IMG/VR virus record: IMGVR_UViG_3300042987_003191
Source of the DNA: an uncultured virus (IMG/VR IMGVR_UViG_3300042987_003191)
Lineage: Duplodnaviria > Heunggongvirae > Uroviricota > Caudoviricetes
DNA: 20,000 nt
Reading direction: 5' to 3' (one strand)
Shown: positions 497-19,531 of the stretch, one piece after another
Position numbering within the stretch: the first letter of the stretch is position 1
Layout of the letters: each line of letters opens with the position of its first letter
Made by a program: the position numbers and the translations under genes
Notes under the pieces: model-generated
Seen by the model: only the letters and a program-made list of their open reading frames with translations
Database searches by the model: none
What the model was told of the DNA's origin: nothing

Positions 497-1003
497 ATGC
501 ACACCATGGCCAGCTCTCCGCTTGTTTTTGGCTTTAGCGAGGAAGACAAGGAGCTTGTACGGAGGGAAGCCCTCCGCAGGCAGCGCGTAAACGAGCGAAA
601 GGGCTTGAAAGGACGCAATGGAGGACCGGCAGATGGTGGCAAAGCACTGCTTTTTCACAAGCTTGGCGCTGCTGGTGAGCTAGCAGTGGCAGATTATCTC
701 CATCTACGGGAGTTTCTCTATCAAGAAACAGAAGCAAAGCGAGGGTCTTTTGATCTTCCTCCCGATATTGACGTGAAGACGCGCTCTCGCCATGACTACG
801 ATCTCATTTGCCAACTAGACGAGAAGCCTGGAAAAACCTTAGTGCTGGTTACAATTCAAAACAAAATCACTCTTCTCCATGGTTGGATAAAGAGTGAAGA
901 CGCGATGAGGCAACAATGGAGAAAGGATCCAGCGGGAGGCCGTATGGCTTATTTTGTTCCTAAGGCTGAGCTATTATCCTTAAGCACCCTGAGAGCGTCA
1001 TGA
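497..1003 (+). CDS. Hypothetical protein, putative PD-(D/E)xK-fold nuclease
   Basis: 168 aa ORF with GAAGELAVADYL (motif I Glu), SFD (motif II) and IDVKT (D-x-K motif III). Its stop overlaps the next start (ATGA). Confidence 0.6.
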   Translation: MHTMASSPLVFGFSEEDKELVRREALRRQRVNERKGLKGRNGGPADGGKALLFHKLGAAGELAVADYLHLREFLYQETEAKRGSFDLPPDIDVKTRSRHDYDLICQLDEKPGKTLVLVTIQNKITLLHGWIKSEDAMRQQWRKDPAGGRMAYFVPKAELLSLSTLRAS

Positions 1004-1689
1004 CAAAAGATCCTCGGCGCTTTTACGTTTACGCATTCTTAAGAGAAAAAGACTCGGCACGCGGCAAGCGCATGAGTCCTTATTACATTGGCAAAGGAGC
1101 ACGAGATCGCGCCACTTCGAAATGTCGCACCATCCCAAGACCTAGCAATTCTTCGTTCATCGTTTTTGTGCAAGAAGGCTTAACTGAACAAGAGGCGTTT
1201 GATTTAGAAAAGTATTGCATTGCCCTCTATGGACGCATTGATAAAGGCACTGGTATTCTTCGCAATCTTGGTGATGGTGGCGATGGAGCATCTGGCGTAA
1301 TTTACTCCCCTGAACGCAGGAAGCAAATATCAGAAGCAAATAAAGGGCGCGTTCACACAGAAGAGACAAAGCGCAAGATCGGAGAAAAGCAAAAAGGCGA
1401 AAAAAATCACATGTGGAGAAAAGATGTATCCCAAGAAACCCGCGATAAGATTTCCCGAGCTAATAAAGGACTAAAGCGATCAGAAGAGGCTCGTCGCAAT
1501 ATCGCCCAAGGAAAGGTGAAGTACCTCTGCGAACTGGTTGATCCGCAAGGTAATGTACATAAAGTAGATAACTTGTGGGCCTTTGCTAATGAAAATAACT
1601 TGCACTACACAATGCTAAGCTGGTTAGTTAAAGGCAAGAAGAAGCAGTATAAAAAGTGGATTTGCAAAAGTTGCATTGAGGTACGATGA
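1000..1689 (+). CDS. GIY-YIG homing endonuclease with NUMOD3 repeats
   Basis: N-terminal FYVYAFLRE...PYYIGKG..R and EAFDLEKYCIALYGR...GILRN..DGGDG. Repeated NUMOD3 units: ERRKQISEANKG, HTEETKRKIGEKQKG, SQETRDKISRANKG. Confidence 0.9.
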   Translation: MTKDPRRFYVYAFLREKDSARGKRMSPYYIGKGARDRATSKCRTIPRPSNSSFIVFVQEGLTEQEAFDLEKYCIALYGRIDKGTGILRNLGDGGDGASGVIYSPERRKQISEANKGRVHTEETKRKIGEKQKGEKNHMWRKDVSQETRDKISRANKGLKRSEEARRNIAQGKVKYLCELVDPQGNVHKVDNLWAFANENNLHYTMLSWLVKGKKKQYKKWICKSCIEVR

Positions 1690-3601: not shown

Positions 3602-3608
3602 AATGGTA

Positions 3609-3658
3609 CGTTCACCCCGCAAGGGGCGCATGACTCGCTGGTACGGAACGGGACCAGC
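3609..3658 (+). ncRNA. Glutamine-II riboswitch (Downstream-peptide RNA motif)
   Basis: P1 CGTTC/GAACG, P2 CCCC-GCAA-GGGG, CGCA junction, GGAACGGG, and pseudoknot GCTGGT(3637-3642)/ACCAGC(3653-3658). It lies directly upstream of a YRG-containing peptide, the known context of this motif. Confidence 0.85.
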
Positions 3659-4718: not shown

Positions 4719-5092
4719 GTGTGCTCTCCAGTCCCGATAAATTTCATGGCTTCATATTGAGGAGCATGCGCTAGCAAGTACTCAAAATATTTTCCATCTA
4801 ATGATTGAAGCTGCCAAGCCATTTCTCCAGCGTGCCACTGAATAACGCGCCATTGCATTGTTTTGAGCTTCATTCTTCCCCTCTCTTTTACCTCTGTCTC
4901 AAATTCCCAAATGTCGCCAACTTTTAGACAGTCAGGGCGATTACATATTTTTGTAGTCTTGTCCGTCTCTTGCTGTATCCAGCCCCATGCAGAAGCCTTG
5001 ACGGCAACTTGATGAACAATATCTACAACGTCAGAGCCGCCACAGCCGTCCATCCACCTCAACACCAATTCACGACTTGGAGCAGGAATCAT
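4715..5092 (-). CDS. Hypothetical protein
   Basis: 125 aa ORF coupled to both neighbours by start/stop overlaps. Confidence 0.65.
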   Translation of the reverse strand: MIPAPSRELVLRWMDGCGGSDVVDIVHQVAVKASAWGWIQQETDKTTKICNRPDCLKVGDIWEFETEVKERGRMKLKTMQWRVIQWHAGEMAWQLQSLDGKYFEYLLAHAPQYEAMKFIGTGEHT

Positions 5093-5295
5093 TAGTTGAA
5101 TTCCTCCACCACTTTTGTTTTTACCACGCCTTTTCTATCCGCCTCTTGCAACTCAAGACCACGCTTAAAAGCTTCCGCAAACGTACCAAATAATCCAGCG
5201 TATTCCCACCAAAACCACACCCTTTTCTCTACAGCAAAAATGGGCTCACTTGGATCTGCAAAAGAAGGCTTTTCAACAATGCGATAGCGAGCCAT
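5092..5295 (-). CDS. Hypothetical protein (MARYRIV paralog 1)
   Basis: 67 aa; TAATG coupling on both sides; similar to the upstream gene. Confidence 0.7.
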   Translation of the reverse strand: MARYRIVEKPSFADPSEPIFAVEKRVWFWWEYAGLFGTFAEAFKRGLELQEADRKGVVKTKVVEEFN

Positions 5296-5504
5296 TAGTC
5301 AATCTCCGCAACAACAAAACGATTCTTTGCTAACGCTGCCACATATTCTTGTGCGTCTTCAACGGAACCGAAATCATCGACGTAGCTCCAGTATTTTGCC
5401 GTTGATCCATCGAGAAATTCCATCGACAGGCGTTCTTCTACGTCGTAAAGGCTTTGTTTAAGATCAAACCGCAATGGGCGGCTGACAATGCGATAGCGGG
5501 CCAT
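5295..5504 (-). CDS. Hypothetical protein (MARYRIV paralog 2)
   Basis: The ATG at 5504 gives MARYRIVSRP..., the same N-terminus as paralog 1. The longer start in the track would overlap the tRNA-like element. Confidence 0.7.
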   Translation of the reverse strand: MARYRIVSRPLRFDLKQSLYDVEERLSMEFLDGSTAKYWSYVDDFGSVEDAQEYVAALAKNRFVVAEID

Positions 5505-5507
5505 GAA

Positions 5508-5577
5508 AACCACTTCCGGGAATCGAACCACAGGATTCTAGGCTATGTGCCTAGCGTGTACCACACACTTAAGCGGC
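5508..5577 (-). tRNA. Degenerate tRNA-like element, CAT anticodon (pseudo-tRNA?)
   Basis: Minus strand reads GCCGCTT AA GTGT GTGGT ACAC G CTAGG CACATAG CCTAG AAT CCTGTGG TTCGATT CCCGG AAGTGGT T. Acceptor, D and anticodon stems pair and the T-loop is canonical. It has A8, A33, a short D-loop and a broken T-stem. Confidence 0.55.
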
Positions 5578-5581
5578 AGGA

Positions 5582-5805
5582 GCCCCCTGTTTGAGCATCA
5601 TTGATAACTGGTGAGGATGCCTGCAAGCCTGTGCGCACAGTGTAAAGCCGTCCTCGTTATCAAGCTAAGCTTGGGGGCGAATCACGCAAACCAGGAAAGG
5701 CTACCCATAACCAACGATGGACCTCAGAACTGGCTGCTCTCCACTGACAGAGCAATGGAGGGAAAGAACAGCACGCCCTTGACACGTGCCAAGCTTGCGC
5801 TGTCT
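5582..5805 (-). ncRNA. Candidate structured ncRNA directly 5' of the tRNA-like element
   Basis: Long interrupted helix GCCCCC..TTGATAAC-GAGGACG / CATCCTC..GTTATCAA..GGGGGC with an inner CTGTGCGCACAG hairpin. A 5' hairpin ACAGCGC-CTTGGCAC/GTGTCAAG-GTGCTGT is also present. It has its own extended -10. Confidence 0.6.
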
Positions 5806-5809
5806 CGAA

Positions 5810-5818
5810 ACTATAGCA
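5810..5818 (-). promoter_or_regulatory. Extended -10 promoter (TG-C-TATAGT)
   Basis: Lies between the 3' end of tRNA-Met and the first hairpin of the ncRNA. Confidence 0.55.
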
Positions 5819-5824
5819 TCAAAA

Positions 5825-5897
5825 TGGCGGAGACAGGACTTGAACCTGCGACCTCCAGGGTATGAACCTGGCGAGCTACCAACTGCTCTACTCCACT
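5825..5897 (-). tRNA. tRNA-Met(CAT), initiator-like
   Basis: AGTGGAG TA GAGC AGTTGGTA GCTC G CCAGG TTCATAC CCTGG AGGTC GCAGG TTCAAGT CCTGT CTCCGCC A forms a full cloverleaf. The A1:C72 mismatch and A11-U24 pair are initiator features. No CCA is encoded after N73. Confidence 0.92.
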
Positions 5898-5903
5898 GTA
5901 ATG

Positions 5904-5985
5904 GCTTAAGCGTGAAGCGATTAACAAGCGCTAATCGCTTCAGAGGCTTAAGCTCTGTCTGCCCGATGCTAACGCAGAGCGGGAA
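5904..5985 (-). ncRNA. Structured leader of the tRNA-Met transcript (possible pseudoknot plus long hairpin)
   Basis: On the minus strand, CCCG/CGGG is crossed with GCTCTG/CAGAGC, followed by GCTTAAGC..TGAAGCGATTA / TAATCGCTTCA..GCTTAAGC. An extended -10 TGcTATATT lies at about 5993-6001. Confidence 0.45.
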
Positions 5986-6001
5986 CTTGTTCAATATAGC
6001 A

Positions 6002-6733
6002 CTAAGCCTTGCCGTAGGCAGGTAAATTTAGCGCATTTGTTTCAAAAAAAGCTGGGACAGTTGAGGCTCTGGTCTCATTCAGCTCAGGAGCCCTTCCATT
6101 GATGAACAACGCATCACTCTGGCGCAGCCAAAAATCTTTATCAAGATATTTATTAGACGACGCGCCAAGCTTGTCATAAATCCATAGCGCCGTCATCTTG
6201 CGCAGTTTATTCAAGCTTTCGCCATATTTCTCTCCAGCTTCTTCGCAGATTTTGGTGTGGCAATAAGCGTGACAGATCTCGTCGCGAGAAATGTCAGTTG
6301 CCACAGTACGCAGTCCTTTATCTCCATTGAAGCGGAAGAAAGGAAGAATGGTAAAGAATAGACTCCGCTCAAGCACAGCCACTTTTGCCATGGGGTGAGC
6401 AGGATGTTCAGTCCATGCTTGGCGAATCTTAAGAGCTTCTTGTTCTGCTTTCTCATCTACGCCATGAGCAGCCGCCACATAATTCAACGCCTCATCATGA
6501 CGCTCTTCATCCTTGATGTTGCTATAAATGCTCTCCACTAGGCCCGGCGTATTGGGGAGCTCACGCTCAAGCCCTTCCAGCAGCATATCCTTCACGGGAA
6601 GCTCAAGATGACGAATGGCCAATGCACGAAAAATGGTCTCTTCCGAGCCATTGACAAATTCCCCTTTAGTAACAGGCACTGCCTGCCAAGGGCGCTTGCG
6701 AGCAACTGCCGAGAAATAATCTTGAACTGCCAT
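6002..6733 (-). CDS. nrdB: Ribonucleotide reductase small (beta) subunit, ferritin-like, Cyano SP type
   Basis: Di-metal ligands ELPV, DEERH, LERSLFF and DEICH; directly downstream of the alpha subunit. Confidence 0.8.
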   Translation of the reverse strand: MAVQDYFSAVARKRPWQAVPVTKGEFVNGSEETIFRALAIRHLELPVKDMLLEGLERELPNTPGLVESIYSNIKDEERHDEALNYVAAAHGVDEKAEQEALKIRQAWTEHPAHPMAKVAVLERSLFFTILPFFRFNGDKGLRTVATDISRDEICHAYCHTKICEEAGEKYGESLNKLRKMTALWIYDKLGASSNKYLDKDFWLRQSDALFINGRAPELNETRASTVPAFFETNALNLPAYGKA

Positions 6734-6801: not shown

Positions 6802-8232
6802 CTACTCAGCGCAAGAGCTGCAGAAGCCCCCATCCAATGAACAACTTTCGCTCTCCTCAAGGGAAAAGAAGCTGCTCAGGCTCTCCCCTAATTCTACTCC
6901 AACATCGTCTTTAGCTTGAGTGCCAGCTTGCACTTGAAGGGCGTAATAAACAGAAGTTTGCGGACTATCAAGCCACTCTTGAATGAAACTTTCATCACAA
7001 GAAACAAGATCAGACCACCAATTCATTGAATAACCATGGAACAAACCAGTGCGGTGGAAAAGTTCGCAAATGCCATCAGCGACTTTACGGAAAGTAGTCC
7101 AGCCAACTTCTTCAGCGATCTCCACCGGTCCATATTCAAAACGCTCTACGCCCATGGTTTCGCTATCGCGATCCACAAGGCGATCAATGGGAGGAGCGAT
7201 TTCCGGGGCTGCAGTAAAGCCGCGAGTGTCTAGGTAGCGATAGGAGCAGGAGGCAGTGGGAGCAATGCAGAATGCACGCTCCATGCCGTGCTCGCGGGCA
7301 ATGTCAGCAGCAGTATCAATGCCTTGATACAAAGCGTGGACGGCTTTTCCGGCCACGGTGTCTGTCCAATGGTGAACCCAGGGATGTGGGTCTTCCATTA
7401 GGAAGGCATCAAGAGCCTCGCCAAATTCTTTGTAGCTAATTCCATGGATGGAAAGAAAATTAGCAAGGCCAAGTATCCCAAGACCCACCTGCTTATCAAT
7501 GGAAGGAGAAAGATATTCTCCGGTATCGCCAACGCCAGTATTTGGATGGAGAGCACAAAGCTGGCTCATTCCTTCAGCAAAAGCTCCCGCAACGCCATCC
7601 AACGTGCATGCACCCAAATTAACGTGCTGAAGAAGACAAGTACCGCGATGCGGAAGATATACTTCAAGGCAAACGTTTGGTCGCAGCCGCTTTCCATTAT
7701 TGTCGTGGCGGATTTTGTTGAGCCAGAGATCGCCAGAAGAGATGGCACGAAGACAGGCATTGATCAGCTCAGGAGACGATGCGGAAAGAAAATTATTGTC
7801 AACGTTTAAACAACGCTTCGCCCATGGCAATTCACTCCTGGAGGTGGAAACAAATTCAATGGCATCAGGATGCGTATAGTCCAAGTGCAACGTAACTGCA
7901 CCATTGCGAAATTTTCCACCACGACGAAGAATTTCATTGAGTTTGCTATAAATTTTTGCAAAGCTTACTGGTCCGCTAGCAATCAGTCCTTTGCCATTGT
8001 CTTCACCCTTGGGGCGCAGTTCAGAAAGATGCACTGCAGCGCCAGCAGCATTACGTAGAGCATGGCTCACAAAACGCCACGAGGCCTCAATGCCATCCGG
8101 CCCCTCCATTGAATCATCTACGACAAACGTGGTGCAGCTAACGGCAAGCCTGCTTTCAGGATCATCAAGCCAATCTTGCACCCTGCCAGTACGAGCAATC
8201 GGCTCACATTTTGCCTTTTCCTTCAGCTTCAT
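6802..8232 (-). CDS. nrdA: Ribonucleotide reductase large (alpha) subunit, Cyano SP type
   Basis: VSC, ASGPVSF, RRGG..RNGA, catalytic NVCLE (NxCxE), CLLQHVNL, IAPTASCS, YY dyad (SVYY) and C-terminal CSSCAE. The protein is compact (476 aa) with no ATP cone. Confidence 0.92.
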   Translation of the reverse strand: MKLKEKAKCEPIARTGRVQDWLDDPESRLAVSCTTFVVDDSMEGPDGIEASWRFVSHALRNAAGAAVHLSELRPKGEDNGKGLIASGPVSFAKIYSKLNEILRRGGKFRNGAVTLHLDYTHPDAIEFVSTSRSELPWAKRCLNVDNNFLSASSPELINACLRAISSGDLWLNKIRHDNNGKRLRPNVCLEVYLPHRGTCLLQHVNLGACTLDGVAGAFAEGMSQLCALHPNTGVGDTGEYLSPSIDKQVGLGILGLANFLSIHGISYKEFGEALDAFLMEDPHPWVHHWTDTVAGKAVHALYQGIDTAADIAREHGMERAFCIAPTASCSYRYLDTRGFTAAPEIAPPIDRLVDRDSETMGVERFEYGPVEIAEEVGWTTFRKVADGICELFHRTGLFHGYSMNWWSDLVSCDESFIQEWLDSPQTSVYYALQVQAGTQAKDDVGVELGESLSSFFSLEESESCSLDGGFCSSCAE

Positions 8233-8240
8233 AAGACGAC

Positions 8241-8260
8241 AAAGGCCCGCATCGCGGGCC
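8241..8260 (-). terminator. Terminator-like hairpin just upstream of RNR alpha
   Basis: GGCCCGC-GAT-GCGGGCC-TTT. Confidence 0.5.
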
Positions 8261-8317
8261 GAGAATCAACCAAGGCAGGCTAGCGCAAGAAGACCATGGA
8301 AAAGAGAAAGGAAAGCT

Positions 8318-8509
8318 TTAATCGCAAAGCCCCTCTGGGTCATCCGTTGTCAACAAGTCCTTCACAAACAATTTGGCTTCATTAGTGGTGCGGAAATAAT
8401 GAGGCTGGCCATTAATGGCAGCAAACCATTGAAACTCTGGCTTGCTAAAGCATGGCCATAATTTATACGGACCAATATTAAATGGTTGACGATCAGGCAG
8501 GCCCCACAT
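8318..8509 (-). CDS. Hypothetical phage protein
   Basis: 63 aa ORF co-oriented with its neighbours; a TAAGAT -10-like box lies upstream. Confidence 0.6.
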   Translation of the reverse strand: MWGLPDRQPFNIGPYKLWPCFSKPEFQWFAAINGQPHYFRTTNEAKLFVKDLLTTDDPEGLCD

Positions 8510-8585
8510 AATGCTTTTGCGAAGATCATCTTACGCTAGTTCTTTTCTATGAAATGAAAAGCAGCATTTAATACAATCTTTCTTT

Positions 8586-9281
8586 TTAATCAAGTCTTAA
8601 GCTTCTTGCGCTTTTGCGTTTCTGCGTATTTTCCTTTTCTGTCTTGATAAGCTCGCTTTCACCTTTTGGAAGCAAGGCAAACGTTTTGCCAGGCTTTTTC
8701 GCAATCATTCCTTCTTCTTCCAACGCAATCAGTTGGTTATAAATTGTTTTCGCCTGATAAGCATCACGATTTGCTTCGTGATGAATGATGGCATTAGACG
8801 TGGGGAAATAATCACAAGCCTCAATATCCCCAATAGCCCATAGCACAAATGTGCGAGCATTCTTCACATAACGAGGCAAGCGCTTCTCCTGATGCAGCAC
8901 TTCAAGAGACTGGGCCAGCCTTGGTCGCATTGGCGTCCATTGAATGCGACTTTCATTTCTGTTGCCAAATTTAATTTTTGCTTCCAACGTCTGACAAGGC
9001 GCTTCGCTTTCAAGATATTTCTTGATTGCAATGGAAAGATGAAACCATTCGCCTGCATGACGCGAATTTTCAAAGCGCTCGTGTAAATCCTGTTCATCAT
9101 CTCGATTCGCCTCGAAGGCCTTGACGACGATCAGCGTGTCTGGCGATGACGTGAGGAACGACGCGAAGCGGTCTCCTGGCGACGTGGAGAAGCCGATTTT
9201 GACATGGTACGGCATGCTCGCCCATTGCACGAAATACACCCACCCATCTGTTTTGCGCTTTTTCTGCTTGGGCTGAACCAT
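8586..9281 (-). CDS. GIY-YIG superfamily (T5orf172/MUG113-like) nuclease with a probable C-terminal winged-helix domain
   Basis: GWVYFVQ..VKIGFS..P..R..EQDLHERF..R..GEWF. The C-terminus TIYNQLIALEEEGMIAK..FALLPKG looks like a winged helix. ATG 9281 has an RBS (GGAGAAGG) and an extended -10 TGtTATAGT at 9304-9312. Confidence 0.8.
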   Translation of the reverse strand: MVQPKQKKRKTDGWVYFVQWASMPYHVKIGFSTSPGDRFASFLTSSPDTLIVVKAFEANRDDEQDLHERFENSRHAGEWFHLSIAIKKYLESEAPCQTLEAKIKFGNRNESRIQWTPMRPRLAQSLEVLHQEKRLPRYVKNARTFVLWAIGDIEACDYFPTSNAIIHHEANRDAYQAKTIYNQLIALEEEGMIAKKPGKTFALLPKGESELIKTEKENTQKRKSARSLRLD

Positions 9282-9359
9282 GCCTTCTCCGCTGAAAGCC
9301 CTTACTATAACAGGATCGGGACAACAGGGACAAAACAACTCCCAGCAGCATGAGTTACG

Positions 9360-19342: not shown

Positions 19343-19531
19343 TTAAGACAACAAGCGTTTAATATCGCGCTCTACATTCTTCAAGCTGCGCCGATCATCT
19401 GTGCTTTTGCTGCACACTAAGATTTTGCCAGAAGAATGTTTAAAGATGAAATGCTTTGTTTGTCGATGTAAAACAAAGCCATGCTTTTTAACGAGCGCAA
19501 ACAGTTCTTGCCTGTTGTCTTTGAGCGCCAT
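19343..19531 (-). CDS. HicA-like toxin (mRNA interferase fold)
   Basis: 62 aa basic protein: L....GF.L.R..KH.IFKH..G..L.......D.R...N..RDI.R. Confidence 0.7.
   Translation of the reverse strand: MALKDNRQELFALVKKHGFVLHRQTKHFIFKHSSGKILVCSKSTDDRRSLKNVERDIKRLLS

Follow-up and report, generated by a model that had tools for sequence, protein, structure and literature searches.

The window examined here is a stretch of 20,000 nucleotides (nt) from the uncultured virus IMGVR_UViG_3300042987_003191, and it carries on its minus strand, at 5508-5818, a unit that is a conserved, non-coding, structured RNA. The core of this unit is a long interrupted helix (5677-5583) that descends from the frame of the abiF motif (Rfam family RF03085), and its 3' part is a tRNA-like domain. 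The RNA is conserved and folded, the toxin gene is absent from the phages that carry such hairpins, and a tRNA or tRNA-like neighbour is constantly found beside them. From these observations we infer AbiF binding, an anti-defence effect, cleavage sites and dimerisation. In this tentative explanation, which we hold with slightly less than even confidence, the unit would be an orphan antitoxin-like decoy RNA directed against putative host AbiF-type toxins, with a 3' end made by RNase P at a degenerate tRNA.

A reading made from the sequence alone had described the unit as two joined parts, a structured non-coding RNA of ~225 nt and a non-canonical tRNA-like domain, and covariation together with the predicted folds confirms this description. 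The elements that it listed, namely an extended -10-type box (5818-5810), a 5' hairpin, a middle segment, an interrupted helix (5678-5582) and a cloverleaf, are all present on the minus strand. Each RNA piece takes the expected shape when folded alone; folding energy by itself is weak evidence (z score of -1.43 for the whole 320 nt and -1.6 for the cloverleaf).

The helix was assessed in an alignment of 14 sequences, 13 of them distinct, over 103 columns. Its outer stem pairs 5677-5673 with 5587-5583 (one extra pair extends the helix to 5678-5582) and is followed by one bulged A. An inner stem of 3 base pairs (bp) joins 5671-5669 to 5595-5593, a 3' internal loop occupies 5592-5588, and an inserted arm spans 5668-5596. 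RNAalifold gives 30 pairs, nine of which are changed on both sides, with two broken cells. The helix cells are 99.5% paired versus 94.0% in shuffles, none of 500 shuffles is as good, and slid controls reach 40-48%; the structure is more than chance. Two-sided changes are seen in both the outer and the inner stem across the 13 distinct sequences, and the inner stem covaries as A-U in seven of the 14 sequences, G-C in four and U-A in three. Since G-U pairs occur on the minus strand only, the fold belongs to an RNA read from that strand. Conservation is strongest in the 35-nt apex of the inserted arm (5617-5651), which shows no variation in the 14 sequences and contains a perfect 12-nt palindrome (5640-5629).

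The connection to abiF comes from the relatives. RF03085, whose curated cut-off is 37 bits, matches as a full motif at 46.9-55.7 bits, 4-5 nt before the tRNA-like domain, in nine of the 20 relatives' loci scanned. A covariance model (R1) was built from the nine full abiF hairpins of relatives and searched over 79 sources, and the hairpins were sorted into a class M with the plain abiF motif, a class B with a 48-nt insert and a class A of the window's type. The 38 matches of R1 comprise 25 plain motifs (38.5-70 bits) and 13 class B hairpins, which are aligned full length across the insert (19.7-21.9 bits, E 4e-4 to 2e-3). Four of the plain motifs are in cultured phages and 21 are among the 65 viral loci of the tRNA-like domain (53-70 bits), 20 of these adjoining it. 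Hairpins of classes M, B and A occupy the same place in related loci. The flanks of the window helix and of class B hairpins agree at 17/17 and 21-22/23 positions in six of nine rows, the two inserts being unrelated (15-21/47 identical), and the right flank of the window helix is identical to that of class M hairpins at 16-19 of 23 positions. The columns of the 3' internal loop are invariant or nearly so.

Thus, the window helix displays the abiF-type outer stem, bulged A, covarying 3-bp inner stem and 3' internal loop, while the 11-nt terminal loop of the motif is absent and the arm stands in its place. On this chain of likeness it is best described as an abiF frame that carries a long arm where the motif has its 11-nt terminal loop, with class B as a likely intermediate. 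The sequence-only reading had called the RNA unrecognised and had held that a match to a described Rfam family would remove its novelty. The first statement holds for the window copy: across the unit, Rfam returned nothing at gathering scores or at E<=10, only a canonical tRNA-Met being matched in the surrounding ~500-nt region, and neither Rfam nor ARAGORN reported the RNA or its cloverleaf. It does not hold for the core helix, which appears to be an expanded abiF derivative; because the relatives carry the full RF03085 motif, part of the novelty is lost. Among the papers listed for the abiF motif or RF03085, none reports enlarged forms or an anti-defence role, and the main text of Weinberg et al. 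2017 makes no mention of abiF (PMC5737381).

According to Saunier et al. (10.1101/2025.04.15.648962), the abiF RNA is the antitoxin of the HEPN ribonuclease toxin AbiF, which it neutralises by direct binding, as a review also states (PMC12737573). The C. difficile RNA RCd22 has two abiF motifs and neutralises AbiF in cis as well as in trans, its stems being needed, and AbiF is described there as a dimer that binds two RNA copies. In a complex solved by cryo-electron microscopy, one RNA is bound per AbiF monomer, with the active site blocked by nucleotides from a single-stranded bulge; the same review sees in AbiF the root of Cas13 (PMC12737573). Inhibition of AbiF is reported for a hairpin of phage sk1, and escape from ToxIN for phages with RNA antitoxin mimics (PMC13064643).

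In the phages considered here, the RNA is found without the toxin. A search for Abi_2 (PF07751) found it in none of 10 phage records, consisting of five complete isolate genomes and five contigs rated 95-100% complete, although nine of these records carry an abiF-type hairpin; it is also absent from the 50 open reading frames (ORFs) of the window. For a phage that has the RNA and lacks the toxin, the most likely job of the RNA is that of an orphan antitoxin. Mycobacterium phage Redno2 likewise carries an abiF motif of 47.5 bits (L102 601-637) and no Abi_2 gene, so that orphan abiF RNAs also occur outside the cyanophages. The motif is also seen in ~30 other Cluster J-type mycobacteriophages.

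The second constant of these loci is the neighbour on the 3' side. In three of three cultured T4-like cyanophages, the plain motif is followed after 4-5 nt by a canonical tRNA: in S-CREM1 (52.2 bits) a tRNA-Gly starts 4 nt after it, in S-SZBM1 (55.7 bits) a tRNA-Ala follows, and in S-SRM01 (49.3 bits) a tRNA-Arg. In L005, a relative with the helix, a true tRNA-Pro ~110 nt downstream replaces the mimic. As the identity of the tRNA is irrelevant and its position constant, the simplest reading is that it supplies an RNase P site at which the RNA would be trimmed. One of the two roles that had been suggested from the sequence alone, that of the tRNA mimic as a processing signal, is thereby favoured, as far as the comparison of three cyanophages with tRNAs of three identities, and of the tRNA-Pro in L005, can indicate.

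In the window, the corresponding position is taken by a 69-nt cloverleaf (5577-5509) with a discriminator base at 5508, and its minimum free energy (MFE) fold is the cloverleaf. A 5-nt linker (5578-5582) joins it to the helix, and the predicted RNase P cut would fall between 5578 and 5577. All the oddities pointed out by the sequence-only reading can be read in the sequence: a CAT anticodon (5547-5545), A8 (5570), A33 (5548), a D loop of 5 nt (5564-5560), which keeps its GG, and a T stem with a one-base bulge (5530). In addition, the 7-bp acceptor stem contains two G-U pairs, the T loop is canonical and CCA is not encoded. ARAGORN does not call this cloverleaf, nor does Rfam at E<=10.

A degenerate pattern of the D arm and anticodon loop located 67 viral stretches, of which 65 are the domain and two are chance repeats, and the domain (65 viral contigs) is far more widespread than the class A helix. 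In 36 distinct copies, the cloverleaf is 94.5% paired, 12 of 21 pairs are changed on both sides and none of 500 shuffles is as good; in most of these rows, the D arm and anticodon loop were fixed by the search pattern and do not count as independent evidence. Covariation among homologs, which had been named beforehand as a check, is present here as it is in the helix (9/30 pairs). The T-loop and D-loop GG columns are invariant, and the acceptor stem and T arm are kept. Position 4:69 is mismatched in 28 of the 36 relatives (G-U in the window), and position 8 is A in all copies but three (T in L007, L016 and L020). The base preceding the domain is U in 30/36 and C in 6/36, and CCA is encoded in 0/36. 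We read the domain as a probable decayed tRNA gene that retains features of use to processing enzymes, such as the acceptor/T-arm stack, the T loop and the D-loop GG, and the 4-5 nt spacing together with U at -1 would fit a predicted RNase P site. The model of mascRNA/menRNA (RF01684) gives 27.1-31.5 bits for relatives, below its cut-off of 42.5, and no match in the window. In S-EIVl, the tRNA-like domain is succeeded by another, longer element of this type (L001 3190-3290), which in L019 comes immediately after the helix; around an odd core of ~70 nt it has a 7-bp acceptor and a canonical T arm, and ARAGORN does not call it.

It is highly improbable that the cloverleaf functions as an unusual tRNA (Met or Ile2) to which the upstream RNA is just a leader. 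Of 21 relatives' copies, ARAGORN assigns 18 to tRNA-Met, tRNA-Ile or tRNA-Val, and copies with U33, CAU and a regular T stem are tRNA-Met to this program, eight of them scoring 33.4-39.9 bits against the Rfam tRNA model. True tRNAs score 50.8-69.1 bits on the same scale, however, and copies of the window type, with A33 and a bulged T stem, are called sometimes by ARAGORN and never by Rfam. The window copy combines A8, A33, the bulged stem and two acceptor G-U pairs, the 4:69 mismatch prevails among its relatives, and a canonical tRNA-Met lies ~250 nt upstream.

The domain could also be active in itself: where an anticodon nuclease attacks a host tRNA, it would act as a decoy or as a substitute that resists the nuclease. 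In 10 helix-linked copies that were found independently of the loop, the anticodon loop is restricted (CAU, GAU and GAC, with A37 kept), and copies with A33 have fewer U in this loop. HEPN nucleases such as Cas13a are reported to cleave anticodon loops (10.1101/2025.04.15.648962), and the domain has as its companion an RNA that resembles the antitoxin of a HEPN toxin. Even so, this role is improbable. Over all copies, the anticodon varies (CAU, GAU, GAC, CAC), S-EIVl and L002 have a shrunken 5-nt loop instead, L005 has its true tRNA-Pro, and the T4-like cyanophages have ordinary tRNAs for glycine, alanine and arginine at this place; the uniform loop of the 36-copy set is no evidence, since the search pattern fixed it. 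The related proposal of the sequence-only reading, a decoy that shields the true tRNA-Met from anticodon nucleases, receives little support from the same variation and from the loss of the anticodon in S-EIVl-type copies. Moreover, most relatives have no tRNA-Met beside the mimic that could be protected.

Downstream, the next coding sequence begins, as had been noticed, 3 nt after the end of the domain, with an ATG at 5504. It is a 69-aa ORF (5295-5504, minus strand) that lies outside the RNA. Together with a neighbouring paralogue of 67 aa, which has the same N-terminal motif, it occupies 5092-5504 (minus strand), and neither small ORF is assigned to a family in Pfam, PHROGs or PADLOC. This layout invites the reading of the unit as a cis-acting leader of the downstream gene, or as tRNA punctuation that yields a nearly leaderless small-ORF message. 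In 13 of 44 distinct contexts, the start codon follows the discriminator by 0-6 nt, with no room for a ribosome-binding site, and RCd22 is reported to regulate abiF in cis by premature termination (10.1101/2025.04.15.648962). Such a role is nevertheless quite improbable: by their N-termini, judged by eye, the downstream genes of the 44 contexts are window-type small ORFs in 14, metallophosphoesterase-like in 21 and others in nine, and this variety argues against a dedicated cis-regulatory role. In S-EIVl the gene downstream of the domain converges on it, and the terminator scan found no terminator downstream of the long helix.

Taken as an orphan antitoxin, the unit could work as follows. It would be a phage RNA gene built of modules, its core helix (5677-5583) derived from the abiF motif. 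Made early from its own promoter, the RNA would bind a host AbiF-type toxin and thereby prevent abortive infection. The inserted arm may make this binding tighter, or it may bring two RNA copies together as a match for the dimeric toxin. As for the tRNA-like domain, it would be a decayed tRNA retained as a handle for host tRNA-processing enzymes: a cut by RNase P at its 5' end would make the 3' end of the decoy RNA, and a cut by RNase Z behind it would free the downstream message. As regards the arm, three unrelated apical tips (class A, class B and L097) are all palindromic, which suggests the pairing of two RNA copies; alternatively, the palindromes could reflect how the inserts arose. An 11-mer pattern occurs four times in the window versus 1.3 expected at one mismatch, which is not significant.

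Several points weigh against the orphan-antitoxin reading. By the family's own score test, the window helix is not a member of RF03085: it falls below the cut-off, with no match even at E<=10, and the class A records L001, L002 and L006 have no RF03085 match at the locus either. R1 fares no better, its best match at the window locus covering the 3' half only (5.3 bits, E 8.3), and its search of the 79 sources returned no class A hairpin at E<=0.01. The membership of class A hence follows from a chain of likeness and not from a direct score. The abiF terminal loop, which holds much of the conservation of the motif, is replaced, and AbiF binding may have been lost or retargeted. In 24 of the 65 loci, no abiF-type hairpin stands beside the tRNA-like domain, which indicates that the domain also serves other modules, and in Redno2 the motif has no adjoining tRNA, the nearest being 269 nt off. 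For AbiF in cyanobacteria, the literature offered nothing usable, and the table of Saunier et al. has no cyanobacterial rows among those listed. Finally, expression is hinted at by contigs from RNA libraries, in which DNA carry-over is possible.

Some of these points suit a different view, in which the helix is a distinct structured RNA that reuses the abiF base as a scaffold for a partner other than AbiF, be it a host protein or its own copies in a self-assembly like that of ROOL or GOLLD, the tRNA-like domain still serving as a handle. The strongest conservation is indeed in the apex (35 invariant nt in 14/14 sequences) and not in the abiF frame, the terminal loop is lost, and the helix is not recognised as abiF by any model. 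In addition, phage RNAs near tRNA islands are reported to form RNA-only multimers through kissing loops (PMC12286853), and the tip of the arm is a perfect palindrome. This view is still somewhat unlikely, given that selection keeps the abiF frame together with its 3' internal loop, compensatory changes being seen in both stems, and that hairpins of the three classes share one position in the locus.

The apex was also used to trace the distribution of the helix. An exact 24-mer of it is found in seven viral contigs, the same seven being recovered with a second pattern, and a 20-mer in 13 metagenome loci. The only cultured phage with nucleotide similarity is Synechococcus phage S-EIVl, where the helix alone (92% identity) lies in an unannotated intergenic gap; Rfam gave only chance rows of long non-coding RNAs on this copy. 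A host-derived sequence or a phage attachment site (attP) was rejected, as exact matches of the 20-mer are found in just four loci of 185,579 species genomes, all of them chance matches in unrelated, apparently coding sequence without the frame of the helix. An open frame runs through the helix, but differences of 1 nt in length and compensatory changes of the RNA type oppose a coding function. Likewise, Rfam and ARAGORN reported no group I intron in a tRNA, transfer-messenger RNA (tmRNA), RNase P RNA or Y RNA at the locus. A permuted tmRNA of cyanobacterial type is present elsewhere in a 92-kb metagenome contig with a class A helix (L021 913-1233, minus strand), among genes for tRNA-Gly, tRNA-Thr and tRNA-Pro; it scores 52.7 bits with RF04321 (cut-off 47) and 65.2 with RF01851 (cut-off 70).

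The unit probably belongs to a larger locus that starts at a promoter-like extended -10-type box (no. 1, 6001-5993, minus strand, by eye), directly 3' of the stop codon (6004-6002) of a gene for the ribonucleotide reductase (RNR) beta subunit, and that includes a further conserved module. This upstream RNA module (5901-5986, minus strand) is supported by its fold (MFE -40.2 kcal/mol, z -5.55) and by covariation, and belongs to no Rfam family. It consists of a small 5' hairpin and a long-range helix (5952-5947 with 5910-5905) around a 10-bp hairpin. Over 16 distinct sequences, pairing in the long-range helix is complete (100%), and three of its six pairs are changed on both sides; the short S1 helix is invariant and hence unproven by covariation, and a pseudoknot (5956-5953 with 5945-5942) is possible. 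The canonical tRNA-Met (CAT; 5825-5897, minus strand; ARAGORN, 61.6 bits with the Rfam tRNA model) begins 3 nt after the module.

The contexts before the tRNA-like domain were classed by an R1 search and by reading by eye, sorting by BLAST having left 17 of 45 unsorted. By eye, the upstream module stands directly before the domain in 14 of the 45 distinct contexts, and a -10-type box precedes the first RNA module in most relatives examined. Contigs from four RNA libraries join the relatives' upstream module straight to hairpin P1 or to the helix. In window numbering, contigs of relatives connect 5764 directly with 5901, which identifies 5765-5900, with the tRNA-Met, a second box and hairpin H0, as an insertion in the window relative to these kin. 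The library contigs show shuffled modules; they belong to relatives and one of the runs is probably DNA; starts and ends are unreadable in them, and uncovered parts mean nothing. The locus is modular, each module being followed by a tRNA or a tRNA mimic.

Between the tRNA-Met and the long helix, the unit itself begins with the second extended -10-type box (5810-5818, read from the sequence by eye). The claim of a promoter is based on the conserved -10-type box alone, judged by eye; a sigma-70 scan that also required a -35 element found no promoter at either box. The 5' hairpin H0 (5768-5803), with a nested inner hairpin, has an MFE of -17.2 kcal/mol (z -2.53) and is present with stem changes in L006 and in L080/L084, by eye; two terminator-like rows of the terminator scan fall inside it. 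Hairpin P1 (5739-5760; -9.1 kcal/mol, z -3.55) carries a conserved 10-nt loop (5754-5745), which by eye is retained in L004 and L005 while the stem differs. The middle segment (5683-5736) is variable and folds weakly (z -0.76); in L003, L004 and L006 it is swapped for a different hairpin, and most relatives have another hairpin there.

The window is phage DNA, with a large terminase, a portal fragment, RNR alpha and beta, a helicase and homing-endonuclease-like ORFs. The gene for RNR beta (6002-6733, minus strand) matches PHROG 6799 (E 6e-102), and the ~500 nt downstream of it contain no credible ORF. Within 6802-9338 (minus strand), the large-subunit ORF of RNR (476 aa) matches only C-terminal parts of RNR profiles, and a 250-aa ORF with T5orf172/MUG113 domains lies upstream of it; from this arrangement the gene looks split by an insertion of the homing-endonuclease type. 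A NUMOD3/homing-endonuclease-like ORF (1000-1689, plus strand) is directly upstream of the large terminase gene, and a 62-aa ORF (19343-19531, minus strand) has a weak match to the HicA toxin, 21.8 bits and below the cut-off of 27. A glutamine-II riboswitch aptamer (RF01704; 38.6 bits, cut-off 33) at 3606-3658 on the plus strand points to a cyanophage, and the likely source is a cyanophage-type virus from freshwater. The relative L028 also has a glutamine-II riboswitch (42.2 bits).

AbiF-type HEPN toxins are widespread abortive-infection systems at the evolutionary root of Cas13, and their RNA antitoxin was characterised only in 2025. If the orphan-antitoxin reading is true, the unit would be a natural RNA-based counter-defence against the AbiF family that is widespread in freshwater and estuarine cyanophages, and at least one unexplained structured RNA beside phage tRNA genes would gain a concrete partner. 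Bacterial viruses would then also have their counterpart of the route by which MALAT1/mascRNA forms an RNA 3' end. With its three size classes (plain, B and A), the hairpin provides a ready-made series on the role of the added arm. A bolder extension, which we consider unlikely, is an RNA 'decoy operon', in which each module would be a mimic of, or a trap for, a different host defence protein, the modules being cut apart at tRNAs and worn-down tRNAs by the tRNA-processing enzymes of the host. The helix would then be an upgraded AbiF antitoxin that dimerises through its self-complementary tip and blocks both active sites, and the upstream module and P1, the hairpin whose loop is conserved, would act as decoys too.

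Among known systems, the closest likeness is to the abiF RNA itself (RF03085; RCd22 in C. difficile, AbiFr in a Prevotellaceae bacterium), the RNA part of a type III toxin-antitoxin or abortive-infection system, with which the window helix shares a G/C-rich outer stem, a bulged A, the 3-bp inner stem and a 3' internal loop of 6-7 nt, and whose full motif is carried by relatives in the same locus. Unlike it, the window helix has an arm of ~70 nt with an invariant apex for the terminal loop, and the unit continues into a tRNA-like domain instead of a terminator and a toxin gene. The abiF small RNA of S-CREM1 is similarly an orphan cyanophage motif within a cluster of structured RNAs and tRNAs, yet it is a plain 37-nt motif followed by a normal tRNA-Gly. 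It has already been annotated in the S-CREM1 paper, whose Table 4 and related passages offer neither a function, such as one against AbiF, nor a remark on the tRNA spacing (PMC9964418).

A parallel in function, which is inferred for the window RNA, may be pseudo-ToxI of phage PhiTE: the phage has a type III RNA antitoxin but no matching toxin gene, and the RNA serves to neutralise an abortive-infection toxin of the host. Blower et al. (2012; cited in PMC13064643) reportedly described it as an RNA antitoxin mimic by which the phage escapes ToxIN. ToxI consists of tandem repeats that its own toxin processes, whereas the window RNA has one hairpin-based module and a tRNA-like domain as its handle.

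This handle recalls MALAT1 and MEN-beta with their mascRNA and menRNA, where a tRNA-like fold likewise stands at the 3' side of a non-coding RNA and RNase P makes the 3' end of the upstream RNA, as is predicted here. Those RNAs are vertebrate and nuclear, and the likeness is one of working only, with no claim of homology. Phages themselves offer further comparisons. T4 RNA C and D are structured RNAs of the phage tRNA cluster that lie flush with tRNA genes, and the same holds for manA and wcaG (Rfam) and for GOLLD and ROOL (PMC12286853). The ends of such tRNA-flush RNAs are therefore probably set by tRNA processing. All of these differ in fold from the window RNA, a part of which is tied to a family with a known protein partner.

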